Positions 1,903-63,965 of a DNA stretch of 64,000 bases are shown here, piece after piece; position 1 is the stretch's first letter; each line of letters begins with the position of its first letter. The translations under genes and the position numbers were made by a program. The stretch covers positions 904,855 through 968,854 of the forward strand of contig NMRA01000011.1 in NCBI GenBank assembly GCA_002633005.1. Reading direction: 5' to 3'. Below the pieces are notes generated by a model. That model worked only from the letters and a program-made list of their open reading frames with translations, searched no databases and had not been told where the DNA came from. The stretch is from Phoronis australis. Taxonomy: Eukaryota > Animalia > Phoronida.

Positions 1903-2983
1903 ATGGTGCACTCTCCCTCGTCAGGAACCAATGATGTCAGCTTAAACAGCACATCCGCTGACTTTTCATCTCAAGATTTAGAAACTCTCCCTCCATCTGT
2001 TCTCGCCAGCACTCACCTGACTCACCTCTACTTGGATTTTAACAAGTTGAAAGATCTTCCACAAGAATTCGGCACTTGCCTTCCATCACTTTCGTTTTTA
2101 TCATTGGAAGGAAATGATCTGGAATTTCTACCCGATTCTTTTGGAAGCCTGTCTCGCCTCACCGAGCTGTATTTAAATGAAAACAAACTTAGCGATTTTC
2201 CTCCATCGTTTGGAAAATTGAAAAACTTACAAATACTAAACGTTGTTGGCAATAATTTGTTGACGTTGCCTCAGTTGCTAAGCAACCTAGAGTCGTTGCA
2301 GTCGATTTACGCGGATGAAAATGGTCTTCGTGAAATTACGCAAGATATTGGCAGGTTATCTCATCTTAGAATTCTTGAAGTCAGCAACAACAAGCTGTGT
2401 AGCCTACCAGCAAGTATAGGTGAACTGGTGAATCTTGAATCACTCAATATCAGTGTAAACAAGTTGAAAACTCTGCCTGAAAGTCTAGGCGACCTCGGAA
2501 AGCTCAAGGCTTTGGATCTATCATGCAACTGCATTAGACAATTGCCAATGCATTTCAAATCTGTAGCAACATTGGAAATGCTCGTTGTTGAAAATAACGA
2601 AATTTCACTCTTGCCAGAGTGGGTCAGTTCCCTGTCTTGTATTGAGTGTCTGTCAATGGCTGATAATCACATCACAGAGTCTCCATTTACATCTGAATTT
2701 TCAACAAATTGTCAGAACCTAAAAAGACTGGATGCTGGTGGAAATTTCATGGACGCCTTGCCAGACACGTTCGGGGAGCTTAAGAGTTTAGAGTTCCTCC
2801 ACCTGGGAAGTGTCATTCATGAGTTAGAACGACGGAATTTTCAAAACGGCAATTGGTTGACCATACTTCCGGACAGTTTTTGTCAGCTTCACAAATTGAC
2901 AGAGGTTCACTTGGACGAGAACCAGTTGACAGAGTTACCAGAAAACGTTGGGGATCTTCACAGCCTGGAATTTATTGATTTAG
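1903..2983 (+). CDS. LRR gene coding exon 1 (LRR1-15)
   Basis: LxxLxLxxNxLxxLPxxFGxL repeats; donor G|GTTAAA, phase 1. Confidence 0.93.
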
Positions 2984-5900
2984 GTTAAAATGTCAAATGT
3001 CACCATAATAGAAATGTTCTCATGTGCAAAGTTTTCACGTTGTAACTTGCGCTTTATATTACTCTTACCTTCCTGTATATAGCATGCAAGACAAATAATT
3101 TTTAGCATTTCTGCAGTGTAGATGCTTTATGCTCATAATGTCAAAAAAGGCATCCTCTCAAATTAAATTAAAAAATTTCAGAAAGCATCGATTGCTTTAC
3201 TTTTCAGAAAAAAGGATCATTTTCCTTGTACTTCAAACGGTTAAAGTGTTCACACGGAATTGTTTTTAATAAATGTATGCTGATAACCTCTGTCGACTCA
3301 ACAAAAATTATGCAAAGCTGAAATACTCTTCTCATACTGATCTCATCAACTTTGTCGTATTACTTTACTGCAGGTCAGAATCGACTACTGGAATTGCCAA
3401 CATCTTTCGGCAGGCTGAGGTCTCTGCGCACATGTCTTTTGTCCAAGAATCATCTGGAACTCCTGCCCTCTACGTTTGGTAATCTGTCCAAACTGGAGGA
3501 ATTCCGAGTTGATAACAATCAGGTACTTCATGATAAAAAATTGTCGCATCACTTAAACTGCTACTGTGGTACTGATGAAGTATTGATTCCAAGGAAATCC
3601 TTAAGTTACCCAAATGAAATTCAAGAGAATTTTACAGGCATATATTGGTTTTGGTGTTTGAGCTATACCCAAATTTTGGCTGCTTGCCTTTACTTAGAAA
3701 ATATTTGATCTTAATTTTGCACTATTCATTTGTTCAGTTCTATGTAGTACACTACTCTAAAGTAGATGTGTTAGTCTTAAGTTTAAAGTTGCTTTATGGT
3801 CTCAATGTGACAATGAATCTAGAGTGTCAGAATTATCATTGTTATGTTGTTTTTGAATATCCATGTTCCAAGGCTACATGCCAACCTTTCTAAAGGAACG
3901 TCAGTTTAGCAAAGAAACGGGCATTCTGAGTCTGAGCACTTTCATAGATTTAGCTTGCATTCAGAGTAGTTCTGAGCCTAGTAAACTAGAGGTTCGTTCA
4001 ATTGATCTCGGCTTGTTGATTTCTCCATCCAAAATCTCCATCCTGCATAAATGGGGTAACAAAGGCGTAATGTACTATGATTAATAACTGGAATTGGCGT
4101 TGAATCATTATGACATGCAGTTTGGTGCACCTGTACAGAAAAGAGACTCAACATAATTTTGCAGATTGCTGAGTTGCCAGAATCGTTTCATCAGCTCACC
4201 AACCTGAAGACGCTAGATTTGTTCAACAACAGACTCACTGAGATTCCACCTTGCTTAGGCTCTCTGAAGAAACTGACGCGACTGGACGTAAATGGGGTAT
4301 GGCAACATTTTTGTGTTTGGATTATGCCCAAAACACTGGAACTACAACAGTTTATTATCAACGCCGGATTCTGTACGAATGGTTGAGTTCATTTATTAAT
4401 AAACATTGTATTATATTACTGTTTTTCTTGTTGAGGGCCCTCTTGGAAAGCAGTGCTATCACTGAAGAGGCCACCCTCATTTTAAATATCACAACAATAA
4501 ATAAATAAATAAACATTGTGATCAAGTCCAATTTCCAGCTAAAACTGTCAGTATCACTTTAATTTGACTTTGCTATTGGAAAGTAGATTGATTTTGTTTT
4601 TGTTGATTTCCTTTGGCTTATATACTTGATGCTCTAAGAAAATTCAAACAAGTTTACTTGCCAGAATACTAGGTGGCTCTTCTCTCCAAAGTTTATCTTT
4701 TGACAAGGAATTTTTTAAATCGTGACTGCGAGATCAAAAAATGCCATGTTGCATTCTTTCCTGAGCCGATGTAGTTCAACAATTTGTCCTTAGGTTATGG
4801 GGTTATTTGTATTCTTTGCAATGTTTGCTTTTGATCGCATTTTTGTGACAAATTGTTAATGACAACATGTTTGCTTGTCTTGAGATTTCCAGTCCGATTT
4901 TGACTTTCAGCATTTCTTTTAAGCACTATAAACGTACCTTTTCAGAATAAATTCAAAATTCCACTAAATAAAAGGCCCATGCTTGACCGCGAGTTGACCT
5001 ATGCTCCTCGTGACCCTGACCTTAAGGATAACTGGAGGGGAAAGGGTCGTCATGAAGAGATAGACAACGTGACTGTTAAAAAGGTCAGTCGGTTGCCAGT
5101 TGTGATCTGATACACTTGTCATGAAACATCCATTGTTAGTTTTATTTTGTACGAATCTTTGTTTTGTACAACTTGAACCCTGACTCACTGAAACTTTCAA
5201 TTTTAATATTTATTCATTCATCTCAAAACACCTGTACCGCATTTTTCTTTGAAACGCCAATTATTTTTCATAAAAATGCCTTATATTTTGCGAGTTTATT
5301 TGGCATAGAAACAAATTTGAACTAAACGAATAATCGAAAATTCCTAGCAGTGTTTTAGGTAAATTGTGAAGTTTTCATTCATTAAAATTGACCAAGGGGT
5401 TATTTTGCTATGAGTGGAACTTTTAAATGAAATTTTGACTTAAAAAGGTGAAAATGTAATAATAATAATGGCACATGAATATAAAACATATTTTTATAAT
5501 CTCATCTGTTTTCTGTTAGAAAATATATATTGTTACTAGTTGACATAGCTTTGGTATAAGAGTTAGTATAAAGGCCAATAAATAAGGTTTGAAATAACTT
5601 TAAGTTGTCAAAACAGTTCACGTGGGGTCACGTGCTTCCATTAAAATTGAGCTTATAGTGTGTTTTTGTTCTCCTGTAATCTCAGATTCACATTGACGCT
5701 GGCGATGATGCCTCCGAGTCCGAAGAGGAGGCACAGCCATTGAGCTGGAACGAGAATGCTCTGCGAAGGGCTATGAGGTCAGGGATGTCCATGTGGAGAT
5801 CACACACGGGTCAGTTGAGTGTCAGAGGTCATTCTGCTGCCATGGAGACAGATGCCTGGATCTGTTGCAGTCATTAGAAAGGGTTGTCCTTTGACACTAG

Positions 5901-8891
5901 TTTGAACTTTGAACGGAAGCTTAAAATGTCAAATTTGTACTAAATTTGGAGCATCATATCTGAGAAATAGTGGATTGGATCCAAATGAAAGTGTCAGATA
6001 CTTTGAATTATACACTGTTATCCATTTTTATTTAAGAATTGTTTCTTTAAATATTTCACTCGCACAAGATGAAAAACTGAAAGTTAGGACTTGAATGAAG
6101 GATTTTTATGTGCCCACATATAGTCTGTACTCTGTCATTGCTTTTGTTTGTCATTGCTTCTGTTTGTCATTGCTTCTGTTTGTCATTGCTTCTGTTTGTT
6201 ATTGCTTCTGTTTGTCATTGCTTCTGTTTGTTATTGCTTCTGTTTGTCATTGCTTCTGTTTGTCATTGCTTCTGTTTGTCTTTGCTTGTTTGTTCGTCAA
6301 TTATTCTGAAGACCACCTCTATCTTGAGGACAACCCAACACTTGTCAATTTTCTGACAGATTCAGCTACTGTGGCACCCCCTTTTGTCCATTGGCCAATT
6401 CTTCTGAAAGTTGATATGGGGGTACTTGTGCTGGCACCAGTCAATTTTCAGACAAACTTGATTACCATTGCGTCCCCAATTGGTTATAGTTTTGATAAGA
6501 AATTCTGTGTCTGTCAATTTTTGGCCAAACTGGAGGAAATTTGCGCTGACCTGATGCATAGTTATGTTTTAGGAATGTCCGTTGCTTTTTGGCCAAAATG
6601 TCCTGGACTGTGACAACCACTACATGAGATTGCTTGTATAGGCTGTTCATATAAGGGAGGAACACTCTGAGCGTTACCTAAACAGGAACAGAGTTTACAA
6701 TGTCCAGCTGTGGTGATTGATGTTGTCCTGTTCTCAGCATATTTCTCTCACTGTGCATTTCGACGTTATCGCGAGCAGTGGGACTATGTATATTTTGTTT
6801 TTATTTGTTTGATTTGATGCGGTCATACTACTTCTGCCTGAAGATGGTTTGTTTGTAATAAACCGAAACGTTTGATTTGGTTAATATGTCTATCTTCACG
6901 TGCGCACTCATGATTACACTCTCGTTAAAACATTTACCTTCATGAAATTGATCTCAGTTTTTTTCCTTTGTCAAAGAAGTTGTGATATCTGGCTTGGAAA
7001 GGACTGGCAGCCCGTTATGGCTTGAGACTGAGGCTTTACAATTTGGCTTGTCACAGCGTGTCATTTTATTTTCCGAGCACGATTTCAAGTAATGACGAAC
7101 TATCAAGACGGAAAGTCACTTCTCATGTGAGTGAGAATGAATTGAGATCAAGTGAATAGCTGCAAGTGGTTTAATGCAAAATCCAGTTTTATTCTTTGAT
7201 GGAGGGCAGGTTTATGGCTGCTTTGATAACTCTGCACGGTTTCAGTTTGGTAAAACGTGAGAAAACATTAAAGTTTCATTTTCAAATATTTTGTTCTCTT
7301 ATCCCAAGCAGAAAGGTCGAACATTAAATTCACCTGTTGTCAAGGTGTTAATTGTTTGTACAAGTCATTAACAATGTCAGTGTATTGTCTATTTTCCGCT
7401 TCTAGGACCTGATAAGCGTGAAGTGTACAGAAATCCGCAGCCGCAGACTCCTTCTCAATGTTCCTCCAGTGAAGAATGCGTTGTGGAGGATGACGATGAC
7501 TGGCAAGCCTGGGACATCGGCGATGAAGGTAGGAATTGTCCTCTAGGAATATCAACATTAGCTGTTGTTCATTAGCACCTATAAGGGTAATAATTTCCAT
7601 AGTGAGCGTGATAACACGTGGAACAGGAAATTTTGTAGAGGTAAAACTCAAAGAACTCTGCAAAGATACATGCTGCAACTAGTTTGTTAATGTACTAGTA
7701 GAATATATGTGTTTTGGCACGATTGGTAAGTCTACATGTCAATGTTTTCTTGTAAAACACTAAAGAAACGAAAGTTTTCAACCAACGATGTGTAAGTTAA
7801 CAGAAGCATGAATGCTTTGCTTGATCGAATATTTTTGATGTCAAATGTGAGAGGGCTTTGTGTTCAGCTAGATTATATTCGTTCCAGGTTCTGCAGTTTC
7901 AGTCGGTCAGACCAAGACATGGTGCCCTCCATTGTCTGAGGAGGAGGAAGACTGGGACAAGGAGTGTGAGGGTAGGTCACACATACACACACACCACCTG
8001 GTGGTGACCTGGGTATGACCTGAGAGGAGAAACAACTGGGTACTTTCAGTCCGTTATTTGTTCCTTGATATCCGTTTGCGATGTGATTGGTTGATTGTTG
8101 TTACCGTGACCTAAGGTGCACTAAGTTTTTTATGGCATTTTTTGCAATTGCTGGTTATCTCAGTTTGACGATTCTGAAACTAGGTGAAGGAAACTATAAA
8201 AATGTGATGGTTGGCAAAACAGCAACTTTTGATTAAGTCACTTTCTGTTATAAATTGGGCCATTCTATTCCTTAGCCAAATGAAAAATAATTTCTAGACT
8301 TAAGAACTGACTCTTTGTTACTGCTTCAGACCAAGATCATAAGTTAGCTTGTCACGACAAGTTAGGTTCAGTCACCGAAGCAGTATGGCTGTCATGGGTC
8401 TTCTATTATAATCAATTTCAGCACATAATAACATTGCTTTGTAAGGGGGAAACACCCCTGTATAGAAAATAGTTTTTGATACTAAAACATGGTTATGCCA
8501 GTTTGATGTTGATTACGAGACGTAATTAGTCTACTACTCCTGAGGAATTTCCTATTAACTATGTTAGCCTTCGTACAGTCTGAGTCACATACACCTGGTT
8601 GAAAAATACTTTTGACTCATTGAGCATAAAGTGTAAAGATTTATTCAAATTACTTGTTGAATATTTTTTATAACTTGTTGCGTAATGAATTCTTCATCAA
8701 TATTTCTTTGGTTGGTAGATGTAGTCATCCACACTCCGCCGGTCATAGTGCCCCAGTACTTCAGAACCTATCGACCGTACAAGGATTACGTGCCTGCGGA
8801 CGATCATGTGTCTCCGTTCAATTGGACGAAAGGTAGCAATCCTGAGGTTGTTGAGGGACAGTTCTCAGATGCTGAAGAAGACGTTTCATGA
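1903..8891 (+). CDS. Spliced gene: LRR protein (~19 x 23-aa repeats) with acidic C-terminal tail bearing a COPR5-like / PRMT5-binding-motif end; 667 aa
   Basis: Join 1903-2983, 3374-3522, 4165-4296, 4946-5083, 5686-5809, 7406-7528, 7888-7971, 8719-8891 = 2004 nt. Frame is open, all introns are GT-AG with matching phases. An acceptor at 1894/1900 precedes the ATG, so an upstream exon may exist. Confidence 0.88.
3374..3522 (+). CDS. LRR gene exon 2
   Basis: ctgcag|GT; GQNRLLELPTSFGRL...VDNNQ|gtac. Confidence 0.92.
4165..4296 (+). CDS. LRR gene exon 3
   Basis: ttgcag|IAELPESFHQL...LTRLDVNG|gtatgg. Confidence 0.92.
4410..4507 (+). mobile_element. 5'-truncated LINE/SINE 3' end with (AAAT)n tail and 12-bp TSD
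   Basis: TSD aataaacattgt at 4398-4409 and 4508-4519; gagggccctctt...aagaggccaccctc stem-loop. Confidence 0.6.
4946..5083 (+). CDS. LRR gene exon 4
   Basis: tttcag|NKFKIPLNKRPMLDRELTYAPRDPDLKDNWRGKGRHEEIDNVTVKK|gtcagt; completes the last LRR. Confidence 0.85.
5686..5809 (+). CDS. LRR gene exon 5
   Basis: tctcag|IHIDAGDDASESEEEAQPLSWNENALRRAMRSGMSMWRSHT G|gtcagt. Confidence 0.82.
6131..6290. repeat. 16-bp minisatellite (ttgcttctgtttgtca), ~10 copies
   Basis: Direct periodicity; produces the spurious Cys/Leu-rich ORFs at 6095 and 6108. Confidence 0.92.
7406..7528 (+). CDS. LRR gene exon 6
   Basis: ttctag|GPDKREVYRNPQPQTPSQCSSSEECVVEDDDDWQAWDIGDE G|gtagga, phase 1-1. Confidence 0.82.
7888..7971 (+). 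CDS. LRR gene exon 7
   Basis: ttccag|GSAVSVGQTKTWCPPLSEEEEDWDKECE G|gtaggt, phase 1-1. Confidence 0.82.
8719..8891 (+). CDS. LRR gene terminal exon
   Basis: tggtag|DVVIHTPPVIVPQYFRTYRPYKDYVPADDHVSPFNWTKGSNPEVVEGQFSDAEEDVS*. Confidence 0.85.
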
Positions 8892-13548: not shown

Positions 13549-16500
13549 CTAAATAGACAAATAAATAACTAAATAAGCTTTAGAAACAAGACCCTTGAGT
13601 ACAACAATTTGACCTTCGAACCAATCAAACAGCTTTTGCCCATAATGTTTTATATATGCGCGAAACAGTTAAAGCAAGAACTGTTTATTAGTGTTATTAT
13701 TAATGTAAACTATAAGTCATCCAGTACATAGAATAGAGGAAAAATTATAAATCTGTACTGGACGTACTTGAGAAAGAAACACCAACATTTTGTCAGTAAC
13801 TGCTGACTTTGTCAAGACTGTAACAACATCTGTTGGAGATAGTTGAGAATGAGATAAACAGTGGGAAATCTTCGGTAGCACTCGATCTCATGTGTGTGAC
13901 AAATTAAATCTGAGTCCACCTCTCTTGTACAGGAGGAAAATTCAGTTCACACTTTTTACACCGCATTCAAACCAGTTTTTCTACTTGTCCAAAATCAATA
14001 CATCATTCAGGTCAAAAATATGACCCGATTCCTAACAATAGGTGAACACAGCTGAGTTGCAGGTGTCACCATAGTTAAATTTCTCGCCATTTATCTCATT
14101 CTCAACTGCCATTGCTGTTTCTTTCTTGAGTAAGTCCAGTACAGGTTTATAATCTTTCCTGAGTTTATTATTAATCTTAACAATTCATTCCTTGAGTTTG
14201 TTCCTCACCCCTTCAAAGCCCAGGATTGCTATTCAGGCGTGTAATTCAAATTTAGAATACAAGGTAACTTACGAAGATTCTTCTTCATCATAATCAGCTA
14301 CTGGTGGTGGTGGAGGCGGTAAGGGTGGCGACGGGACACTGGCCATTGGCGACTCAACGTATCTTGGTAGACCATGTGATGGGTTCAAGTTCACACTCGC
14401 ATATGGTGAGGCACCTGGCACAAGCTGACTCTCTGCATAATGGCTGCCATGTTGCCTGGCTGGAGACGGTGAATAATGGTTCCCTCTGGCACCGGGATTA
14501 TCGAAAGGTGGCGGTGGCGGTGGCAGGCCGTTGTTTGGCACGTGGACTGGGCTGCTGGCGTACATGGTCCGGTGATCCATAGCTGTGAAGAAATATTCAG
14601 TGTCAACAGAGAAAGAGTAGAATCCAGGATATCCATTGATTGCCAGGCTAAACATTTCAAATAAAAATGTTACAAACAAGAACCATAAGGAGAGACCTCT
14701 GTGTTTCATTAACAGAACTGATATTAATGAATTGATTAATAATTCGTTTTAAACAATATTTGTGTATCTTCTAACATCTACCTCTAATGGAAAAGTAACG
14801 AATCTTATCTGACAAAACAAAGACCTCCGATTCTTGGCAAGCAACAATATTATATAACCTTCAAATTTCAAATTTAGTTTATTAACACAATGTAAGTTAC
14901 CAAGTTTGAATTTCATAATGCTCTCCCTCCAACTGGCTTCCTCAAAAATATCAAACAGAACTGAAGTCATACATTCTGTATCACAAAGTAGAAGCACATA
15001 CATTAGACCTATGGCATGCATTAAGAATATAGTGCAGTTCTGCTCTTTTTTATCAAATTGACTGAGGTGTCAAGGAAACAATGTGCTTAAGACTACACCC
15101 CAAATGGTTTGCTTCTAGGGGTGTTGATCAGTATCATGGTCATTAGATGGCACAGATCTACAGGCAACCATGACATAACAAGTCGCCACTAGGAGGCACT
15201 GCAGTAGTCGGATCCTCCGAGCAAGTAAACAAGAATATCCTTCTCTAATTTCTAAAAGCTACTGCAATGGGTTTAGGAGATACAGACGCAGATGCCACTA
15301 AGTCCACTAGGGGCACCAAAGTGGTTGGACCCAACTAAAAATCTACATTACCAGTAACACATCAGCCAATTGTCATGATGATCATCTAAGCGGTTTGGTG
15401 GATACACACAGAAGACTCAAAAATAATAAAAATGGCCACTGGGTAGCGCAGAATACGTCAAATCTATTCCAAAATCGGAAACCCTTGTCGTTTCCATACA
15501 AGAAACTTGTTATTTTCATTTCATTAAAAACCGTAGAACGCTGAAGATACAGAGGCAAATATGAAGAATTACAATTCCCGTCAGAGTAGTCCAAAAGAAA
15601 GGGCATCTGCAGTCACTTTTATAGGAAAACACTTGCAAATTTTCACAAAGATCCTGCAAAAGATGTAGGTTGCATTGGATGCAAAGAGAAAACAACCACT
15701 AGGGGTCACCAAAGTTGTCAGACCCCATTGAACAAAAATCAATGTTGGTCATAGTTTTCTCATTAGGAACAAGAATCATTTTTGAGCAGTAAGACAGATG
15801 AAGAGACAAACAACAAAAAACAGACTCAAAATAATAAAAATGACCAATAGGTGATGCAGGATACAGCGAATCCACATCAAAATGGAAAGGTTTCATCGTC
15901 TCCTTAACAGTAACCTGTAATCTAAATTTCACTAAAATCCATCCACTAATTCTAAAGATACAGTACCAAATGTAAAAACTAAAACTGCCACTAGGGGGCA
16001 CAGTGTTAGTCAAACTGGTCCACAACTCATCATCTGTAGTCAGCTGCACAGGAACACACATGCCAAGTTTCATTAAGATTCTATGAGGGTTACAGCCAGT
16101 GGATGCCAGATGTCGGGACGCTCGAAGATGACGACGATATGCACCCATATATGTATATCAAGGAGCTAATAAGTCTATTCTGAAGTGCCGACATGCACAC
16201 GACATGACTAAACCTTGTAGGAAACCATCCTAACTGACTCCCCTTATTTTTCAACTTTCAAAATTAGGATTGCGTGTTCACCTGATGTTGGAGGAGACTG
16301 ACTGTGGTTTGCAGATGTCATGGTACTGGATGGTGGCATCGTCTGAGGTGGAGGTGGAGCACCTGGCTAGAAATGGGGACAAAATGTTAATACAACACGA
16401 ACACACAAAATGGAACACAATATGGCGACAGCAAGGGTAAACAAGAAGATAATTTTATTCGATTATTTAAACATTTATATAGTTTAGGAAAGTTTATGAT

Positions 16501-19500
16501 AATAAAACGAGCTCATTTATTAGTAGTAAAAATTTAAAATCGGTCACAGGAATTAAAATTTTGCAATAAAAAACATTGCATACATAGAGCACGACTGAGC
16601 TTCAAGAATTAGAAAGTATTGGAGTTAATTAAGCAATGGGTAAAAAGGATCTTATAAAAACACCAAACCACTATTTGCCTTAATATTTTTTTAAATGTGC
16701 TAAATAATTTGAAAAGCATATGCATTATATCAAATTTCAGTCAGTTAGTGAATGTCACACCAAATCGATAGCGAAGTGTGTTTAAACGAAGAGTGAAGCC
16801 AATGTAGGTCTCACCTAATCGTTACAATAAGTTAGATAACCCCACACCGTGTTTCTGACTGCACCACATGGTTAGTATGAATCAACGCAGTTTTTAACGC
16901 AAACTGTTAGTAGTGTCGACATAGTTACTGAGTGGTTCAAGATGAACTGAATGAGAGGCCAATTACTGGCAGTGTAACATTAGGAATACAAATGACATCA
17001 AAATTTCAGACTAAAATATACACTCAAGTGTAGTGTGAGAGTCAAAGATGTATTTTTAATAAACAAAGTGACATTTGCTGGGTCCTTCTCATTTCAATTC
17101 ACAACGAGTTGGTATAGATTCATTTAGTATGAAATAAAGAAAATTACTTTTAATCCCAAGGAGTGTGTTTCTCACAGTCAATGCAAAATGTAAGATGTGT
17201 AGAGCAATTATCGCTCACCAATCCAGCTACCATTATAGTGAATTTTAGTAAATAGCATAACTAAGATTAATATTAAAAGCAAACAAGTCAAATACAAGAC
17301 TGTGAAGTGAAATACTGGTTTAAAGTGTTATCAGTTTAGTACTAGATTTCCTAAAACCCACTTTCCTTCTGTTACGAAAACCTACATTAACCTCCCACGT
17401 GACTATATGCCTGAAAAGCAACAATACATATTTACACATGCTGGAGTCGTTTTGCATAAGACACTACAAAATATAATCAGAAAAGTAATGCATGCTGGGA
17501 GTACAAGGCACGCATGCAAAGCAATATGTAAGTTTCACGTCAACCTTTCAGAAATTCGTTCTAATTGATCCTCACCTGTCAGTCATTTCTACAGACAACT
17601 ACATAATAGACAGTGTGGGGGCAGACATTCACACATGAGAGTGGTCACAACTATACCTCATGCTGGGACAGTACCTGTGGCCAGATCACACCAGAACTAC
17701 ACTAGACATAATTATGCTCTATTTAGAGCGTAACTTTAACACAGAGCAAACTCGCAGGACACAAGAGGATTGCTGTTAGCACCGATTTGAAATAGTTGAT
17801 CAAGAACCAGTTTGCGAACAAACTTTATTCACCTTGTCAGTTCACATGGAACAAAACGACCCAGCATAACTGTACAAATGGGTAACAAATTCAGTTTAAA
17901 CGGGAATAATTGTGCCACGTCAGTTTGCGCCAAGTCAAAGAAGTCACGTGAACAGTACAATGGCTTTAGATCACCAATAGTTACAGGGCGTGCAGTAACA
18001 GTGACAGAGACAAGGGTCAGCATGCCGTTGTACCTGCCAGTGTGGGAGGTTGCCTAGCGATGAGTGGCTGAAGCGAGGGTCCTCGTATATAGTGTGGGGT
18101 CGGGGATTGGCTACATTAGATGGGTGGTGACCAGACCACACCACACGATAGTCAGCCCACTGATAAGTCTATGGCCAGGGAGAGAAGCAGAAGATACAAC
18201 TATATAAATCTGTTCACATCTTAAAACCAAACAGAAAAATAATGTCCACCTAGTAAAAACTCCAAATTAATTACAATGTTGCAGCAGACCTAGAATGAGC
18301 TTTGTGCAATAAAAAACAAAAGCACAGTCAATTATTAAGTTATGAAAATTGTCATATTGTTTGTAGGTAAGACAATTTGCACATTCCATCAAATTTTCGC
18401 ACTATGCTGATCACTGCCTATAACGATTCTCTACCAAAATCTCATCAAAGCTTACCTGCTGGGGATTCTGACGTTGAAGTGAGTAACTTCTGCTGTCGTC
18501 TGCTTGTGGCGGTTCCTGTCGTATCAGGGGTCGAGTGGTAGGCATGGTGCGACTGCGCGGGTCAACAGAGCCATACCCATGGAATCCCGGCACTGGATCA
18601 GCTGGAGGAAGGACGGTGATGATGTCATCGTCCGGCCCATCCACAAGGTCAATCATACTCTTTGCTCGCTGATTAAGACTGAATGATTAATTAACAAGTT
18701 ATCAGTGGTCAGTCAAAATGCCTATTGTGTGTAAATGATAACCAATAATTTACAACAGTCTGCACAATTACGAGCCATGATGCAGACTAGTTACACCCTC
18801 CGAGCCCAAAACTTTTCACAAGACAACGAGCACACATGGCATTTTCTAGTCGAACATGGTACTCTAGACTGGAAGTAACACACTGCTTAATAGGATATTA
18901 CATTGCAAGACACAACTGTATTCATTTGAGAACTTGTGTCCATGATCAAGAGATCAGTACTTGGCCATATTAACTTAAAATCCAACACACAGACTCACAA
19001 GTGTCTGTGTAAACTCGGAGCTTTTAGCTAGTGAATACTTTGGAGCAAATACCTTTTCTGGTTTGTGTCAAATGGCTCAGTGAAAGAAAGTGGAAACCAA
19101 CCCATCCTGAAAAGGATGACAGACAAAGGTTAGAGAGTAAAACCATCATAAATTTGACTACTCTGCATAAACAACCAAACTGAAGAAACTGAAGTTACAG
19201 AACAAGATAATTTATAACGTTACAATAGGTAAGTCAACAATACTGACAAGAAAGATACTAACTATAAATTTGATATCAGTGATTCCTCAATTTCCTTTTT
19301 CTTTATGGCTGACTCAATTCACTTGATAGTTCCATAATTTTCTTTATACTTGAAATTTAAGGTTGAACAGCGAAGTTGCTACAACTACTAAAATCATGTA
19401 ATGACGTCGAACACATCACGTGTCAGGTGCAACATTTGATGACTCACTTGTGAATCTTGATGTTTTCACCATAATGCCAGCCATCTTTCTTGTCACCAAT

Positions 19501-22500
19501 CAGCCTGATAATGTCACCAGAATTGAATGATAACTGGGTCTCTGCTTTGGTCACATGATCGTACAAGGCTCGCACGTGTGGCTGTTGGGCAGGGGGCGCT
19601 GGAGGTGGTACTGTGATACTACGTGGTAGCGTAGTACCTGCAATTATCAATAACATATCATAAATCTCCAACAGAAGTACGTGACCTTTTAGCGAAAATC
19701 CTTTACTTTCAACAAAACATGAGAAACATAAAATCACAGGGAACATTTTCAAACCTCGAGCATAAGACTGCTTCATCACACAGTGTTTAAGGCCAAGTTC
19801 TTTGCGACTACATACAGAGGCACATGGCTAGAACAAGTAGTTGACTACACCCCTGGAACAAATGGTTTCCAGGGCTTCAGCTTCACCGCCAGTCCAAAGT
19901 TTTTACTTCAAACAGAGTAGCAGGCCAGAACAGTGACACTGAATACAAGTACTGTGCACACGTGACATGCTACAATTCATCACTGTTGTCCAGAAAGTTG
20001 ACAAAGCAAGTGGCGAATGTGAAAGAGAACGAGAACATCATTAAAAAAAATTGCGTTTCAACACGGCCACAGGACCCGCCAGGAAATAAGTGTTCAATTC
20101 AAGCAAGTGCAATGAGGAATGGATGAGAACACTACTCACATCACAGGTTAAGTTGAAATTCACTCGAGGCATAACACGCACACACGAAATCTGGTGAAAG
20201 GCTGCATAGGTACCAACTGAAGTTAGTATAATTTTAACTGATTTTGTGAGCTGATAACATACCTTTAGCTCAAGAATTCACTTAAAATGCTCATGGCCTC
20301 ACAATTAATCAGCTCGATCACACGTTACAGCACAGAAAATTAAAATAAGGCTCCTTCTTACCCCTAAACATCACTCTAGTGCTAGGTTCAATCAACTGCA
20401 TTAAGCAGGTATGTTACACTGCGGTCTGAAGGCAGACTGCTATTTGATTTATTTTTAAGTAGGATAAAGATCATAGGACAACGACCGCGAGCTCACACTT
20501 AACATCGGCTGTACCAACACCTAATTGTTACACAAGGTGCAATAGCGTCATTGATTGTTAGGTTCATGATCATGAACCTGTGAAACACCACATCAACAGA
20601 GTTAACAACTCGGCAAAGCAAAGGGAAATAAAGATCGCCATAGGGACAGATAAAAATAATATTCTTCAACCATAGACAGTTTGAAAAGAAAAAATTCAGA
20701 GAATATTCATCTCTGCAGGTCGTAATTGTCAAACACAAACCCCCTTCAATACAAACAGTATACACCCTAGCAGTCAATAGTGTGACGTACTGTCCTTCCC
20801 CTAACCAAATGGTCTGGCTTGGTACAACCAATATTGACCAAAAAAAGAACTTCCTATGTCTATTGCGGTCTCAACAGAGCGTCACTTCTTGTGTAATTGC
20901 TTCACCACTTGCCACAGAATTAACCAAATACCAAAGATCAGCAGCCCCACAGCCACACCTCAATGAAACACACTGAAATCCCTTAGTTTGAAAGGCCACA
21001 CCACGCAAGTTACCAAGTCTGGAATACGACTTCAAGAGCATTCCTTAAAGATAAGACAACAACGACAAACAAATTAGTCCCGACTTAGTTTGACTGGTTT
21101 GCCATAGTTTCCTGACTAACAATGTGCAATACGAAAGATGTGATATGACAAGAAATCAAAGTAAACCACAATTTTCTCTCACTATTTGAGAAAGAGTACA
21201 ATAATTCATGACAAAACAAGTACAATTGAATATTCAACAACATTGTTTTCAGCAAACATAAAAGTACAATTTTGTGTCAGTGAAATGTCTTTAGTACGCA
21301 GGAACTTCCAGAAGCTAAAAATTAAACAGAAAGATTTTGGAAGGTAGACTGTGAGTCCTTCTACATACCTGTTCCATTTGATCTCGTTTCAGCGATGTCT
21401 GTCATAGAACGTGGTCTTCCATTGGCTAGTTTGTCGTAAGTGTGATGATCAGTTGGCTGTCTGTGCAACGAGTCAAATTTGGTCTGTCTCAGGTCAGTGA
21501 TGGAGTTGGTCTGATGCTCATCTTCGGCATTCTACAATCAGTCAAGACGTCACCATAACATTAAAAATATTTCAAACTGAAAACAGGAGTGCAGGAACGC
21601 TTTTGTGTTTGTTCTATCAATGAATAAATTAAGCAAAAAACAGCAATAAACTTAAGAAGAATAACACGGAGCGTTCACATGCCCCCCGTGACATATGCGC
21701 CACTGCCCCTAAGATATGTGCCCCTGTAAGTATTCCAAATGGTAAACATACAATGGGAGTTCAACGATGGACATTATTATTTATCCAGGCGAATGACTAG
21801 ATACAAAAAAATTATAAATCACAAGTTTTGGACCTTACTACAAAGTACGTGCGGAGCTGCCTGGCTCTTACTGGGGATTGATGACTGACTCGTTCCTGTG
21901 AAAATTTCACTAGCCTCTACCGGTGTTCATAGACAACAACTGCAAGGCCCTCGACCACGTTCGGGACAGATTTAAGTTGTGTGACTCGTGTACACACAGA
22001 GTAACTATAGTCCAATACACACAGAATAACAATAGTCCAATACACTCAGAGTAATTATAGCACATGAATAACAAAAATTTGGTGTAAGAAAAAAATTTTT
22101 ATGGACCACTTTACTCACCTCATTTGAAATAGCCAATAAATTTTGTGCATTTTCCGGAAGTTGCGCTGGATCTTTGTACAGGGCAGTCCACTCGACTAGT
22201 CTGTGACTCAACATTTCCTGAGACTACAACAGAAAAAAAAGCTGTGAGAGTAACTTTTTTAAAGCTTACCTCACTCCACGTCAAAGCATAAGGGGTGCAT
22301 TCACCAACACCTGACATTCAGAGGCAGAAACAAATTTTCTGCAACAGAAATAGTGCGCTTACGGACTTTACTCATAATTTAACATTCCAACACTGATCAC
22401 AGCCAGTTGATGGCATTTGGCTAGGTTGCAAGCATTCCCCTAAAACCCCGCTTTTCACGAGCGTGACCAAAAATCCTGCTAAACTGACAAGATATTAGCC

Positions 22501-25500
22501 TAAATGAGAAACCAAAGCATAAAACCCGATGGCTCCATATTGAGAAAGTACTCACCTTACTATGATGCGTAGCATAAGCACGCACCATACAACACATGCG
22601 GTCTAACACGAAACTGTAGCGCTTGCGTTCCTCCAACATCACTTTCTTCAGTCCTCGTAGACGAAAGCTGTCCACCTTGGTGCGACATTCATCAGCCAAT
22701 CGTAAACACTGGATAATACAAACAGGCAGATTTGAGACACTCTATTAGATGAGCAACTTCTTGTCCTTCAGTGACAGTTGTTACCGACTACATCACATTC
22801 CACACTGTCTGACAAATAAACACTTTTACTGATTAAAAAGATTAAAGGTTTTCAAAAATGATGAAATATCTTTTAGTCTGTACAAAAACTAGAAAAGAAT
22901 TATAGGCAAGCATGAGTCATCTGCACACATTCATTAGTATTGAAATCATCAAATCAAAATTAAATGTCGTAAGTCTAACTTTGATCTCAGTAAACACAAT
23001 GTTAAAACTCTCACTGTGATCGCCACAAAACAGTAAGAAAGTGCAGACATGACACCAGCAGTACTACATCTAATGGATACTCCAGTGGACGTGTTGCTCA
23101 CACCAAGAGAGGAAAACAGAGAGGAAAACGTGACAGTTGGAATGAAAGACATTAACACACTCATCATGTTATCAGGAAAATGTTGTCATCAGAAATTCCA
23201 ATAGTACAAAGCTTGAATTTTTTTAATTAATTACAAAATGTTTCATTCAAAATGTGTTCGTTGCAAGGTATCAGCCTAACGACCGTCCACAAACCTGCAT
23301 CTCCTTGGCATCCTGCCCAAACCCCTTGGTCTTGTTTTTCCGTCGTACTTTCTTCAAGTTACTTGTGGCCTTGTCATACGAACTGACCAATAGTTTGTGG
23401 CCATTTGCATACTTCTTGTGTTCAAGCTGAAAAACACAAAGCGTTTGGTGGTAATGGAGTGCAAACCATATGACAGACATTCTAACTACAGTGCTATATA
23501 ATCTATTCCATTTACTTATAAAAATAAAAACAAATGCTTGAAGTTTAATTGAAAATTTGACTGCCACAAACAGTAAGCAGATTTCTATAATATTTTTCTG
23601 AACCGTCATAATAAATTTATACCATTACCATTCCTTGTTACACTGAGAAATGTTTGAGAGCAATTATTTACAAGTAAATAAGATGTAAGTGAGTTATATG
23701 TACTTACTGACAAATTCTTGAACTCGCTATCCTGCTTCGTTTCCAAGGGTATGAGCAAATCTCTGGTCACTGCCTTCAGCTTCAATGAGACAAAGTGGCC
23801 ACTCAGTATATTATTGACTGAATTTACCACAAGTTTCCTTGTGGCAATGAACACCTTTTCACAAAAAGAAGAAAAAAATTCCAAAAGTGAACGATCTGTT
23901 CAGATGCACCACTTGAAGTGTGTGAAATTTTGGTCGCGAGTAATTCCCACACTGAAAACAGTCTACAAGTGAAGGACATGTTATCACACTTCACACAACC
24001 TTTAAAATTTATGATATGTCAGCATTGCAAATCACTATGAAATAGTAAAAATTTATTGGCAGCAGACAGACTAATGGCAAATTAAATGTCATGTAAAATA
24101 GGGGTTAGCAAGGCAGCTGTGTACAGCTGCGACCCCAGTGCTCAACTGACATGCAGCACTGAGCTGGTGCGAGTAGATACTGTAGAATCAGATTTTACGC
24201 TGTGTCATTTCTGAAAGTGCAAATTAAGTATGATCTCTGGAGTTTGAGACCACTTCCATACCTTTATGTGGTCTACATCATAAATTAGCCTTTGACGGGC
24301 AATTATCCTCAGCCGTTCAAATAAAATCTGCAAAGCAGCACATTGGGGCAAACAGTTTCCTCTTCTAAGGTGTTTTACATAGACCACTTTATTTTATTTT
24401 ATTTTATTTTATTCTAGACATTCTACTCCAACATTTTCTGACTATTTCCACAGCACATACGGCTGACGAAAACGTCTCATCAGTTGTATAAAACATCTGA
24501 CTGGCCCAAGGGTGTTTCAGTATTGCAACTGCGCCACCTACAGGATCAACTAAATACCTAAAATGAACATAGAGTGCACCAGTACCAGCTGACCTCAGGT
24601 CAAGACTAAAAGAGCACAGGTCTGAACAACTTACCAAAGCAGCCTCAATAACAAACTGGGTCATTGAGTGTGTACAGGATCAATCAGACAAGATTATACA
24701 AGTCAAGATGGATTATGTAGGATTAGAAGTGTGAAGTATCAGGCTGTTTATTCAGGATGGTTTAAAATTCTTTCCAGGATGAAAGACATGTTTTGGTGCA
24801 TTTCTGGTGTCAAGAGATGACCAGCATCTTGATTTTAATTAACTGCATATCACATAGAATTTATTGGGAAGACTTAATTCTGTCCTAATCATTGCGAAAA
24901 TGGAACATTGTCTTGAGAAGGCTGTTAATGTGGATTGTAACTATTGCCTAGATCATACTGACGCAGTGGTTCGAAGGCCTATTCCTTTGTGAAAGAAACA
25001 TTTAAAGCAGACAAAAAGTAACCTTTCAGACGACATACTGTTTTTGAAAAGGACCATTCTTGCTCATATTTTCAAATAAAACAAAGAGTTTCAAATCAAA
25101 TAGACATTAGTCCATTTTTAAAACAACAAAAATTGTTTCAAAATGAACAAATATTTTGACGGAAGAAAAAACAAAACTTACGTTTTCCTCAATTTGTTTT
25201 TGTATTTCTCTGTACACTTCTGCCAACTGTAAGAAGGCTGAGCCTGTAATGAAAAAGGTGTTTAAGTAGGACAACTAACAGAAGCACATTTCTTCCAAGG
25301 GTAAAAAGGACAAAACAGCATGAAAAGACAGCATAAATCTAAGTCTAAATCGATGTTTCATCTTCTCAACAGGGGGCAATCGACAACATGCAGAAAGCTG
25401 CCAAGTGACGTTTAAAATAGGTCACGATACAAAGTTAAGTTTTCTGAAATTACAGCTGCAAATACCACATATAGTAAGCCAAAGTCCATAAATTCTTTAG

Positions 25501-28500
25501 GTGACAAAGACTTCCTGCAGACAATAAAAGACCACACCATGTGGATGTGTAACGTGTAACGTGTAACGTGCTAACGACAACTTGTAACTCAAGCTGTCAC
25601 AACAAACTCATCAGTCAAATAACATCACCCCTATATGTGAACATATGAATGAAAATGTTAAAAAGGACTCTGACCTTTTATACATACAGACTTCTGGAGG
25701 TAGATTTTAGTGCACGACCAAATTAACATAGACTTAGCATTTTAGTGAATGGCTAATTAATATAAAGTTGGAATTTTTCTAGTTTTCTGAGGCTGGCTAC
25801 TTTGCTGCAAAAAAGTGTTTATCAAAGGTGTCCATTTTAGGACAACGGTAGTACAAAGCATGCAAATATTACCACCCTCCCACGTTCACTTTTATCAAGA
25901 CATTTGCCCAAAACTTCCACTTGTACAGCTCATTGTTTGCTAAGTCGGTGAACCATCATACACTTCATTAGATGTTTCATAAAAGCGTGAACGAACCCCG
26001 GAAATGAAAGATCATACCTGAAGAGAAATGCACCTTCACTTAATTAGGTAACAAAACTAATTAGATTTGAACTTTCAGACTGAGAATAGCATGTTATTAC
26101 ATCCGCTGATCATAACAGTTTCTTTATTAAGACCAATGAAGAATGTCATATCCAATTCTTGCCTACGCCTGACTAATTTTGAAATTTAAAATGTGCGGCA
26201 GGGTGTTGCAAGCCCACATCATTTTTAGCCAAGTTCTCAAATTTTTCTTCATAAGTCATCATACAAACACATACAAGCCGAGGTAGTTTTTAAAAGACAT
26301 GATAAGTGGGACACCATTATCGTCTTATTGGCCTTCATTGACTGAAAACAGGTTATTACAACTGTATCAAAGATACCAACGGCAAAAATTTTGATTTGCC
26401 AGAAGTGTGCAGTCATAAGAGGCTTTCCCGTTAGGGGAACTTCGGTTTACCAAAGCGTCGCCGAAACTTCGCATACCATTCCGACTTGACAACGATTTCT
26501 AAGTTATTGCTAAGATACCAGATGACGCAGTTCATTCGTACTCTCAAACGAATACTGAGTAGTGGGTTTGAGGCTAACTGAAAATTGTATTCCTGCCATT
26601 TGCGAGTGTTTATTTGTCATCAGATATGTTTTCTTTTCTTTATTTGTGGGTGTTTATTGAGAGCACGTCACCTACGCTACAATAACAATTCTGTATACAA
26701 TAACAAAGAACACATTTTGCGAGTCTTGCGCAAGCATGTATCATTGCCGCGACCTCTACCAATAACCTTGACAAAGTTTCACTCTGACCTTTCCCACTAC
26801 ACCAAAGTTTCGAAGAGTACAAAAGCTTTCCTTTTAAATCCTACTATTTTCAGCGAAGTTAAACTTTCCCACTTACCAAAACTTCGGTAGAAGCGAAGTA
26901 TCACCTCAAATGGGACAGTGACTATAGTATTTTATATCAAACATACTGTAATCAGCTGTTGTGAGATGTCGCTTTACCATTAGATGCGAAACTTCGCTTT
27001 TACCGAAGTTTCGGTAAGTTGGAAAGGTTTACTCCGGTAGTTAATCTGCAAGCGAAACTTCACTTAAAATAGTAGGTACTTGTTGAAACTTAAGTGTAGT
27101 GGGAAAGGTCAGAGTGAAACTTCGCCAAAGTTATCGGTAGAGGTAGCAGCAACGATATACAATCACGGGAGACTCACAAACCGACACTGACCATTTTCAT
27201 AAACACTCGTAAATGGCAGAACAATTTTCTGTTAGCCTCAAACCCACTAGTCCATATTCGTTCAAGAGTACGAATTAACAGTGTCGTCTGGTATCTTAGC
27301 GATAACTTTGATATCGCTGTTAAATGGGAAATGTAAGCGAAGTTTCGGCAAAGCTTCAGTAAACCGAAGTTTCCCTAAAGGGAAAGTGCCTTTATATCCT
27401 CTACTAAGTGTACAATCTCTTGAACATGCCAGAAGCAAGTTAACAGTGTGTTAATGCTCAACAAGTTGACAGTTATATCCAAGTGATTACACAAAGTAGT
27501 ATCACTTAATGACCATTAGGTCACATCTGTTACTTAAAGTAAGTACTTAAATCATCCTGTCTGCACGATGCTCAGAGCTGATTCAGGTAGCTATTAAATA
27601 AAACCAATATGTTACCATGGAGATGGAAGAACCCTTTCTAAAGTAATAAGTTAGTTCTAGGAAATCAAAGGAAGACCTGGTTGATCATCTTCAACTTAGA
27701 CATACAAATAATGCTGGTCATTATATGTGCCAAATAAAACATTTTGACTATCATCAACGCCAAAATAAAAACGAGCAAGGCAGTGTGGCACACTTCACAT
27801 ATATAAGGAACAATCATTATTTTAAACATTCACAGTGAAGGTTGGCACTAAATTGAAGGACTAGTGGTTTTTGTCCGAAAATAAAGGTGTACTGTCTTCT
27901 CCGGGTGATCACAATTTCACAAAGATCACTCAAGCGGTAAGCCAGAGAGAGCTATGCAACAAAAATTCAAAAAGCCACAAGTACCACTACACGATACACA
28001 CTTCTCTGAACATTGGTGGTGGCCCATTCTCAAAACAAAAACACAAACCAAGTTTTAAATGGAAAGAAAGATAGCTACAAATAATGAATTGCCCCAAGGG
28101 GGTCCAGGATTCACTTGATTCGTACAAAATTTTTGTATTATCATTATTGTCATGGCTACACATTTAGCATTGTAATGGCTAAACATTTTGTATTGTCATG
28201 GCTACACATTTAGAATTGTCATGGCTACACATTTAGAATTGTCATGGATACACATTCTGTATTGTCATGGCTACACATTTAGAATTGTCATGGCTACACA
28301 TTTTGTATTGCCATGGCTACACATTTTGTATTGNNNNNNNNNNNNNNNNNNNNNNNNNNNNNNNNNNNNNNNNNNNNNNNNNNNNNNNNNNNNNNNNNNN
28401 NNNNNNNNNNNNNNNNNNNNNNNNNNNNNNNNNNNNNNNNNNNNNNNNNNNNNNNNNNNNNNNNNNNNNNNNNNNNNNNNNNNNNNNNNNNNNNNNNNNN

Positions 28501-48799: not shown

Positions 48800-49076
48800 T
48801 GCTGGTGTGTTGGTTATGTAGAAGATCGCCTGTGTTGTAGGACCTCACAAGATAATGGTGAGGTAAATGAGTTTGGTACAGAATTATTAGATTTTTGTCA
48901 AAGAAATGAGATAAGAATTCTGAATGGAAGAGTAGGGAAAGATGCAGACATTGGTAGTGTAACATGTGTAACTTATAATGGATGTAGTGTTGTTGATTAT
49001 GTCATGATGAGCAAGGATTTATTGTACTGTGTGGACGGTTTTGAAATCGGTGAAATATGTGAATCGACTGCGCACT
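48800..49076 (+). mobile_element. Non-LTR retrotransposon APE endonuclease fragment
   Basis: RTSQDNGEVNEFGTELLDFCQRNEIRILNGRVGKDADIGSVTCVTYNGCSVVDYVMMS: the ILNGR...G.SVVDY signature; no start codon, so missed by the ORF track. Confidence 0.85.

Positions 49077-53820: not shown

Positions 53821-63965
<10,145 letters not shown>

Follow-up and report, generated by a model that had tools for sequence, protein, structure and literature searches.

A 19-repeat LRR protein with a COPR5-like tail as a probable tethered adaptor of PRMT5

The gene described here lies in the window, the whole 64-kb stretch of DNA that was analyzed, and encodes a protein in which a solenoid of 19 LRRs is followed by an acidic tail ending in a sequence close to the PRMT5-binding motif. 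We favor the interpretation that this protein is a tethered substrate adaptor of PRMT5 and probably represents the ancestral, LRR-bearing form of COPR5. Only three motif-bearing PRMT5 adaptors have been described, pICln (CLNS1A), RIOK1, and COPR5, which are alike in the motif and otherwise dissimilar. COPR5 (COPRS; coordinator of PRMT5) is a histone H4-binding protein that recruits PRMT5 to chromatin. It is short, LRR-free, and reported in tetrapods only, whereas the window protein, of 667 amino acids, combines 19 LRRs with a cap and an SxWRSH block, and its family occurs in non-vertebrate animals. A literature search found no publication describing a family that combines LRRs with a COPR5-like tail.

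Gene structure and the LRR solenoid

The gene consists of eight exons between positions 1903 and 8891 on the plus strand, which together form an uninterrupted frame of 667 codons. Exon 1 (1903–2983) contains the start codon and encodes amino acids 1–361 with LRR 1–14 and the start of LRR 15; it is defined by its open frame, a match to Pfam LRR_8 (E = 4.8e-47), RNA depth, and a joint. Exons 2 (3374–3522; LRR 15–17) and 3 (4165–4296; LRR 17–19) are documented by Pfam, frame, and RNA joints. The remaining exons were assigned by frame and RNA joints: exon 4 (4946–5083) encodes the LRR cap, exon 5 (5686–5809) a predicted helix and the SxWRSH block, exon 6 (7406–7528) a poorly conserved acidic linker with a mean column conservation of 0.29, exon 7 (7888–7971) the first COPR5-like block, and exon 8 (8719–8891) ends with the stop codon. 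The final three exons have GT-AG ends and are in frame with the five upstream exons; exon 7 is followed by a phase-1 intron that splits an Asp codon.

All seven introns were seen as joints in RNA runs carrying the same species label. The numbers of joint reads in runs X1/X2/X3 were 2/1/5, 3/8/9, 5/3/9, and 3/3/14 for introns 1–4 and 7/2/4, 0/3/9, and 1/2/9 for introns 5–7, while contig run X4 contained no joint for any of the seven. The single transcript is inferred from this chain of joints, because no individual read covers the whole gene. The joints support the view, first taken in a sequence-only reading of the window, that the tail exons are spliced to the LRR exons of one gene. Four alternative splice choices for exons 3 and 5 were rejected: three break the frame, and the fourth, a donor at 4287, keeps it open, but the RNA backs 4296. 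In a second check of the RNA reads, no joint into exon 1 was listed. The neighboring genes in the window are an IMD+SH3 gene and USP7, neither of which is among the genes listed around human COPRS.

A strict pattern recognizes 16 LRRs, to which three irregular ones have to be added, in agreement with the approximate count of 19 given earlier. The signature of the family is the irregular LRR 13 with the inserted loop LGSVIxELERRNFQNGNW (2803–2856, plus strand), identified by its conservation: the loop residues G, S, E, G, and N are present in 36 of 36 relatives, and concave-face conservation reaches 0.76 at this signature compared with 0.43–0.58 in LRR 1–12. In two ortholog models the loop has a lower pLDDT. 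We consider this region a candidate partner-binding patch. The cap motif YxxRDPxLKDNWRG[RK] (5000–5044, plus strand) retains its Y in all 36 relatives and its W in 33. After the cap, W[RK]x[RK] occurs in 19 of 19 listed proteins, 18 of which have G as the third residue; most relatives have a single RG at this site and no GRG tract. In the SxWRSH block (5788–5805, plus strand), W and H are kept in 35 of 36 relatives. The exon 5 helix is predicted with low confidence in both ortholog models.

The closest fold matches were SHOC2 and leptospiral LRRs, with TM-scores to the target of 0.67–0.84. SHOC2/SOC-2 and lrrA-like scaffolds, the names that databases use as labels, are also long solenoids of 23-residue repeats. 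The identity to SHOC2 is 28–32%, confined to the repeats and found in shifting partial alignments, which does not amount to SHOC2 orthology; the inserted loop, cap, acidic tail, and terminal motif set the family apart.

The terminal motif and the conserved blocks of the tail

The motif-like sequence GQFSDAE (block 3; 8856–8876, plus strand) agrees with GQF[D/E]DA[D/E] at six of seven positions, as the sequence-only reading had stated, and departs from the exact motif by an S at position 4. None of the window's six frames encodes another GQFxDA, and the chance of a six-of-seven match within the last 30 residues is about 3e-5, given the tail's own composition. Four residues (EDVS) follow it, one fewer than initially counted; in COPR5 the motif (177–183 of 184) likewise lies a few residues from the C-terminus. 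In a published alanine scan of the PRMT5 motif, the D-to-A exchange at position 4 left the IC50 unchanged (6.4 vs 6.0 µM), and the side chain at this position is solvent exposed. Among pICln mutants examined by co-immunoprecipitation, only E231A retained binding. The S mismatch lies at this alanine-tolerant position. VVEGQFSDAE retains every published hot spot, Val(−2), Gly, Gln, Phe, and Asp5, and its motif Gly is preceded by at least two residues, in line with the published truncation criterion.

The tail behind the LRRs is predicted to be disordered, with pLDDT values mostly below 50 in two ortholog models, and in neither of these predicted folds is it docked on the solenoid. The motif thus stands near the terminus, outside the folded domain, on a predicted flexible segment. 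This arrangement, in which a confidently modeled solenoid is followed by a tail of low model confidence that carries the motif at its end, matches the published flexible-tether model. pICln and RIOK1 also combine a folded domain, a flexible linker, and a terminal motif, but their folded parts are unlike the LRR solenoid of the window protein, and a search of PDB sequences with the tail profile gave no matches, so that no sequence likeness to pICln or RIOK1 was found beyond the motif.

Relatives with LRRs and tail, 617–816 amino acids long, were found in a sponge, cnidarians, spiders, molluscs, an annelid, a brachiopod, and echinoderms. As anticipated, their database names refer to LRRs only; names were looked up for 29 of 87 library matches, the other 58 being mostly short fragments. 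When relatives of more than 600 amino acids were collected by LRR sequence alone (an unrelated 1367-residue match was omitted), nine out of ten had kept the terminal motif, and the tenth, a mussel model, differs from its relative from precisely the last intron onward. In a larger set of 53 proteins of this size, biased because many were retrieved with a tail profile and some nearly duplicate one another, the motif is present within the last 30 residues in 46, with 23 matching at all seven positions. Its best-kept columns are Gln, Phe, and Asp5 (46, 45, and 40 of 46), the first two partly as a result of the selection pattern. A brittle-star relative reads VETGQFDDA, compared with the published COPR5 peptide FETGQFDDAED. 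Five clam relatives carry the degenerate form xQF[DE]NCD, and short fish proteins have D/E in place of Gly; alanine at these positions cost 16-fold and 6.5-fold in the published scan. A quick, midpoint-rooted tree of 32 LRR regions roughly follows the animal groups and places the window protein with Lingula (SH-aLRT 90), in none of the starred clades. Alignment A1 was made without P0001 and P0014, alignment A2 without P0021 and P0025.

The conserved parts of the tail are EEDWDKE, YVPADDH, and the terminal motif. Block 1 (EEDWDKECE; 7944–7970, plus strand) retains its W in 33 of 36 relatives. Conservation of both EDWD and GQFxDA, proposed as a check in the sequence-only reading, is seen in this W and in the nine of ten LRR-found proteins. 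Of the other upstream blocks proposed at that time, WQAWD and TWCPP keep their W in only 0–1 of 36 relatives and HTPPVIVPQY a single P (28 of 36). The suggested block-by-block correspondence to human COPR5 was thus partly wrong: the block preceding the motif is YVPADDH ([FY]xPxDxH; block 2; 8787–8807, plus strand), not HTPPVIVPQY. Block 2 keeps its spacing to the motif, its His lying 18 residues before the motif Gln in the window protein; among 34 proteins this distance is 17 in 27, 18 in three, and 19 in two, and two were unmatched. It thereby sits at the distance of the second PRMT5 contact of pICln, 16–24 residues before the motif Gln. This second site is reported to be pICln-specific and absent in invertebrates, and a drug directed against it left COPR5 binding undisturbed.

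Similarity to COPR5 and the short fish proteins

Pfam COPR5 (PF15340) matched nine of 57 relatives, all below the cut-off (best 22.1 vs 27 bits), and the other 48 gave no match. The matches reach E = 2.7e-4 and are colinear over profile positions 43–149 of 150, including a 33-to-33 residue stretch that spans block 2 and the motif. The window itself, tested as single-exon pieces, gave none in eight pieces. No protein reached the cut-off among the 26 scanned from the 87-hit library search, and no tetrapod sequence appeared. None of five pieces lacking the motif kept its match, a result that limits rather than refutes the similarity because the scan filters discard weak matches. At least 12 proteins with the exact motif gave no Pfam COPR5 match, so the motif alone is insufficient for one. 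The resemblance of the tail to COPR5 claimed at the outset hence recurs as a weak, colinear similarity, with every match below the cut-off.

The tail profile also retrieved a 107-residue protein from Danionella (E = 8.8e-4 among 1.8e9 sequences) and five further clusters of 93–113 residues, three of them named as carp-family fish. These proteins are LRR-free, have no cap motif, and show the same three tail blocks at the same spacing. They gave matches to the invertebrate tail as well as to Pfam COPR5, and similarity beyond the motif was seen for fish only. Using hhalign, fish and invertebrate tails align with a probability of 91–92% (E ~1e-6). With a motif-free invertebrate profile, eight of eight fish proteins scored above all of their 200 shuffles, and in the reverse test with the fish profile only 19 of 36 invertebrate tails without the motif outscored every shuffle; the fish set consists of closely related members found through the tail. 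As deduced from read-through ORFs, fish and bivalves have the last intron at a matching position and in the same phase. The name EVI5 isoform X2 is attached to one of the fish records. Four loci in metagenome contigs (35–37% identity over short stretches) and one PDB sequence (E = 1.2) found with the fish profile were taken as chance matches, and the ESM Atlas gave no usable match for the brittle-star tail or a fish protein. The LRR-free fish tails fit the origin of COPR5 by LRR loss that had been suggested for the window protein.

Proposed mechanism and alternative explanations

In the mechanism we propose, the GQFxDA[D/E] motif would dock in the PRMT5 TIM-barrel groove as pICln, RIOK1, and COPR5 do, which is very likely. 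The EDW and PxDxH blocks, which are kept at fixed spacing when the LRRs are lost, may provide further contacts, made with PRMT5:MEP50 or a shared partner and not with the LRRs. It seems rather more plausible than otherwise that the conserved concave face of LRR 13–18 and the inserted loop hold a partner whose arginines the flexible tail would allow to reach the active site. Germline and Piwi proteins are candidates for such a partner, since mouse Coprs pulled down Miwi. The LRR, cap, and SxWRSH exons were quite likely lost toward the bony vertebrates, which would leave the short module found in fish and as COPR5. We tentatively go one step further, with somewhat less than even confidence: COPR5 might be the stump of an LRR-bearing PRMT5 adaptor as old as animals, with invertebrates keeping the substrate-selecting solenoid as an undescribed targeting branch, fish keeping an unannotated COPR5 of 100 residues, and the three-block tail forming a longer PRMT5 interface with its middle block in a pocket beside the groove.

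If true, LRR-bearing COPR5 from sponges to echinoderms would move the origin of COPR5 to the base of animals, provide a conservation map with three blocks to mutate for a poorly understood protein, indicate unannotated fish orthologs, and directly raise the question of which proteins the solenoid brings to PRMT5. Drugs are being directed at the adaptor groove, so that a second conserved contact preceding the motif, if real, would be relevant to adaptor-selective inhibitors.

Binding to PRMT5 need not imply a role as substrate adaptor: the protein might itself be methylated (at NW[RK]G[RK]), or it might anchor or compete with PRMT5. The W[RK]x[RK] after the cap and the competition of motif-bearing adaptors for one groove would agree with this, which we nevertheless regard as unlikely, given the single RG without a GRG tract in most relatives, a 450-residue solenoid whose conserved concave patch points to a bound partner, and the adaptor role of all three published carriers of the motif. 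It is improbable that the family is an independent fourth group of adaptors that came to resemble COPR5 by convergence, through a short motif on an acidic tail, with the fish proteins derived from a separate truncation or forming part of another gene. pICln, RIOK1, and COPR5 indeed resemble each other in the motif only, the Pfam matches stay under the cut-off and are lost once the motif is removed, one fish record bears the EVI5 name, and the gene neighbors differ from those of human COPRS; against convergence stand the colinearity of these matches over ~100 positions, including the 33-to-33 stretch, the motif-only proteins that fail to match, and the fish proteins that match on both sides.

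As a last alternative, the tail might bind a partner other than PRMT5 and the protein might be an ordinary SHOC2-like scaffold. We consider this very improbable, even though SHOC2 and leptospiral LRRs are the nearest folds and the motifs of clams and fish have diverged at positions used in binding: the likeness of ~30% is confined to the repeats, the exact GQF[D/E]DA[D/E] is unique in the human proteome to the three PRMT5 adaptors, and the hot spots Gln, Phe, and Asp5 are the best-kept columns of the motif.

Structure of the LRR gene and its protein

Eight coding exons on the forward strand (1903–2983, 3374–3522, 4165–4296, 4946–5083, 5686–5809, 7406–7528, 7888–7971 and 8719–8891) encode an open frame of 667 amino acids, and every intron between them is of the GT-AG type. 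In raw RNA reads from runs under the same species label, joints were found for all seven introns, in three of three runs for six of them and in two of three for intron 6; a fourth run consisting only of contigs contained no joint. The tail exons are therefore not a separate gene, the case that the sequence-only reading had named against itself. Since the reads are only 90–99+% alike to the window, they derive from other individuals. Among the variants listed (40 of 103), 10 of the 19 coding variants in the LRR gene are synonymous, as is the single variant within the motif. At 422–530, 777–830, 4404–4520 and 7038–7070 lie short repeats that are transcribed and attract many loose-ended reads from either strand; they resemble SINEs or similar dispersed elements.

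The solenoid, previously estimated at about 19 repeats, indeed comprises 19 LRRs (residues 16–457). The irregular LRR 13 includes an inserted loop, LGSVIxELERRNFQNGNW, and no other stretch of the protein is as well conserved; conservation of the concave face is 0.56–0.76 in LRR 13–18 vs 0.43–0.58 in LRR 1–12 (37 sequences). The LRRs are followed by a cap (YxxRDPxLKDNWRG), an SxWRSH block, an acidic linker and three short blocks: EEDWDKE (EDW block), YVPADDH (PxDxH block) and the putative PRMT5-binding motif. The last 110 residues contain 28 D/E and 6 K/R. AlphaFold models of two relatives, from pearl oyster (16 rows) and Lingula (36 rows), are confident for the solenoid up to about residue 470, while the tail mostly has a pLDDT below 50; among known folds they come closest to SHOC2 and leptospiral LRRs, at ∼30% identity.

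Conservation of the putative PRMT5-binding motif

The consensus GQF[D/E]DA[D/E] is reported in the human proteome for pICln, RIOK1 and COPR5 only, in an account that places COPR5 homologs in tetrapods alone (10.1101/2020.08.22.256347, available sections). The motif GQFSDAE was confirmed at 8856–8876 (+), but it ends four residues before the stop, not five; the chance of such a match within the last 30 residues is ∼3e-5. Its sole mismatch is at position 4, and all hot spots known from alanine scanning of a RIOK1 peptide are retained. According to PMC8252068, Gln and Phe are indispensable in that peptide (IC50 >300 µM), alanine at Asp5, Gly or Val(–2) gives 97, 39 and 14 µM, and alanine at the solvent-exposed position 4 gives 6.4 vs 6.0 µM for the wild type. 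In the available sections of 10.1101/2020.08.22.256347, every alanine change somewhat reduced binding in vitro, with E231A as the exception in co-IP.

When a portion of exon 1 served as query, 20 proteins were obtained from 153 candidates, including 10 long relatives from bivalves, echinoderms and one annelid. As anticipated, all 10 bear generic LRR or hypothetical protein names. Nine close with the motif itself or a variant of it; the tenth, a mussel model, diverges exactly at the last intron from the short relative P0043, whose ending is normal. A tail profile search added abalone, octocoral and further bivalves (16 matches from 6438 candidates), and one of 1.84e9 representatives gave 87 matches, with source data for 29 and species for 14. 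The latter are scallop, Lingula, jellyfish, octocoral, three spiders, chiton, sea urchin, sea cucumber, starfish, brittle star, the sponge Oscarella and one fish; this sample includes no insect or nematode and is no test of absence. The branching of a quick tree broadly matches the animal groups, as expected for a single ortholog family, with the position of the window protein not firm.

Overall, 46 of 53 long proteins carry the motif (exceptions: P0001, P0020, P0028, P0039 and P0150–P0152). Gly is retained in 42 of the 46, Phe in 45, Asp5 in 40 and the exact motif in 23, a census biased by search route and near duplicates. Counting against conservation, five clam proteins (P0002, P0005, P0009, P0021, P0024) have a degenerate xQF[DE]NCD. 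The same clam proteins share a C-terminal V[DN]PVF extension behind it. In cnidarian and sponge relatives (P0029, P0034, P0035, P0044, P0097, P0098, P0153), the EDW block and the motif are kept at a longer distance from each other and the second block differs, reading YPP...TAxY[DE]S in cnidarian-type tails.

Short fish proteins and the relation to COPR5

The proposed similarity to COPR5 was borne out only in part: relatives match the Pfam COPR5 profile PF15340 weakly (1/9, 0/9, 6/26 and 2/13 in four scans), but none reaches its 27-bit cut-off, the best match scoring 22.1 bits (E 2.7e-4, profile positions 43–149 of 150). By score, the window-type LRR protein is thus not a PF15340 member. At least 12 proteins with the exact motif show no PF15340 match, so the motif is not sufficient for one; it is needed, since the match was lost in 5/5 motif-free pieces. 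The top score belongs to a 112-aa RefSeq model (P0104, P0123) that consists of the tail alone and is close to sea-urchin tails, either a split gene model or a genuine short form.

Another match, P0110, comes from Danionella; it has 107 aa and lacks LRRs. Its relatives form five clusters of 93–113 aa among eight candidates of 58–188 aa; two clusters lie on transcript-sized contigs (909 and 1175 bases). These proteins are made up of EEDWEKELEE, YSPxxHH and [DE]QFADAE. Profile comparison with invertebrate tails gave 91–92%. Against an invertebrate profile with the motif removed, all eight fish proteins beat 200 shuffles each (13.7–24.3 bits); in the reverse test, also without the motif, 19 of 36 invertebrate tails beat shuffles, the window tail among the top two. 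In 27 of 34 proteins, 6/6 fish among them, the His of the second block and the Gln of the motif are 17 residues apart; in the window this distance is 18. Splice-site read-through ORFs place the last intron of fish and bivalves after (P)Y, directly following the EDW block, and residue changes at this joint fit phase 1, as judged from protein records rather than DNA; the RNA-proven intron 7 of the window, also phase 1, lies just behind the same block. The fish proteins are thus well tied to the invertebrate-type tail and weakly to Pfam COPR5. We regard P0110 and P0131–P0139, unannotated carp-family proteins of 93–113 aa with tail blocks only, as candidate fish COPR5. One fish record is named "EVI5 isoform X2".

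The sequence-only reading had suggested that COPR5 may derive from the fused form by LRR loss. The LRR-free fish tails agree with this, but the last step to tetrapod COPR5 rests on sub-threshold PF15340 matches. Loss is the simpler history because the fused form occurs in a sponge, cnidarians and both bilaterian branches and the short forms in fish, in a sampling without jawless fish, shark or invertebrate chordate. The literature searched, with subscription journals mostly outside it, brought up no paper on an LRR protein with a PRMT5-binding motif or on a COPR5 beyond tetrapods (including accessible parts of PMC9706563, PMC6896060 and PMC12474799; ortholog alignments in figures or supplements may bear on COPR5 range). 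Papers that combine the exact motif with PRMT5 dealt with the three human adaptors.

Possible adaptor function and genomic neighborhood

By the tests applied, the LRR protein resembles a motif adaptor and is predicted to dock on PRMT5. Known adaptors are flexible tethers, with the motif on PRMT5 and the folded part on the substrate (PMC11847536, available text). Because the layout is the same, we propose that the solenoid would select a partner and the tail keep it near PRMT5. The fish proteins lost the cap and SxWRSH along with the LRRs and retained EDW and PxDxH; the former pair therefore likely belongs to the solenoid, the latter to the PRMT5 side or a shared partner. The second PRMT5 contact of pICln (residues 205–213) lies 16–24 residues before Gln229 (PMC13556114, in part), the same distance as PxDxH in window-type tails. 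A similar contact by PxDxH is a lead only, since the same paper calls this site pICln-specific and a drug against it left COPR5 binding unaffected. Pull-downs with mouse Coprs recovered histones and Miwi (PMC6325579, available text), which suggests where partners of the LRR protein could be sought.

The LRR gene faces, tail to tail, exons of an IMD + SH3 gene (14269–24679, –), presumably of IRSp53/BAIAP2 type, and C-terminal USP7 exons occupy 56503–62167 (–). Neither is on the neighbor list around human COPRS in the available part of PMC5370280. One USP7 exon with its flanks is duplicated (59607–59906 and 60042–60341, spaced by 435 bases and 98% identical over 300 bases, adjoining an N). Most likely the assembly placed two alleles side by side, or else the tandem exon is real. 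At ∼28300–29100, a run of Ns with a tandem repeat on its flanks marks a gap in the assembly, and a fragment at 48800–49087 weakly matches an endonuclease/reverse-transcriptase element (E 0.05).
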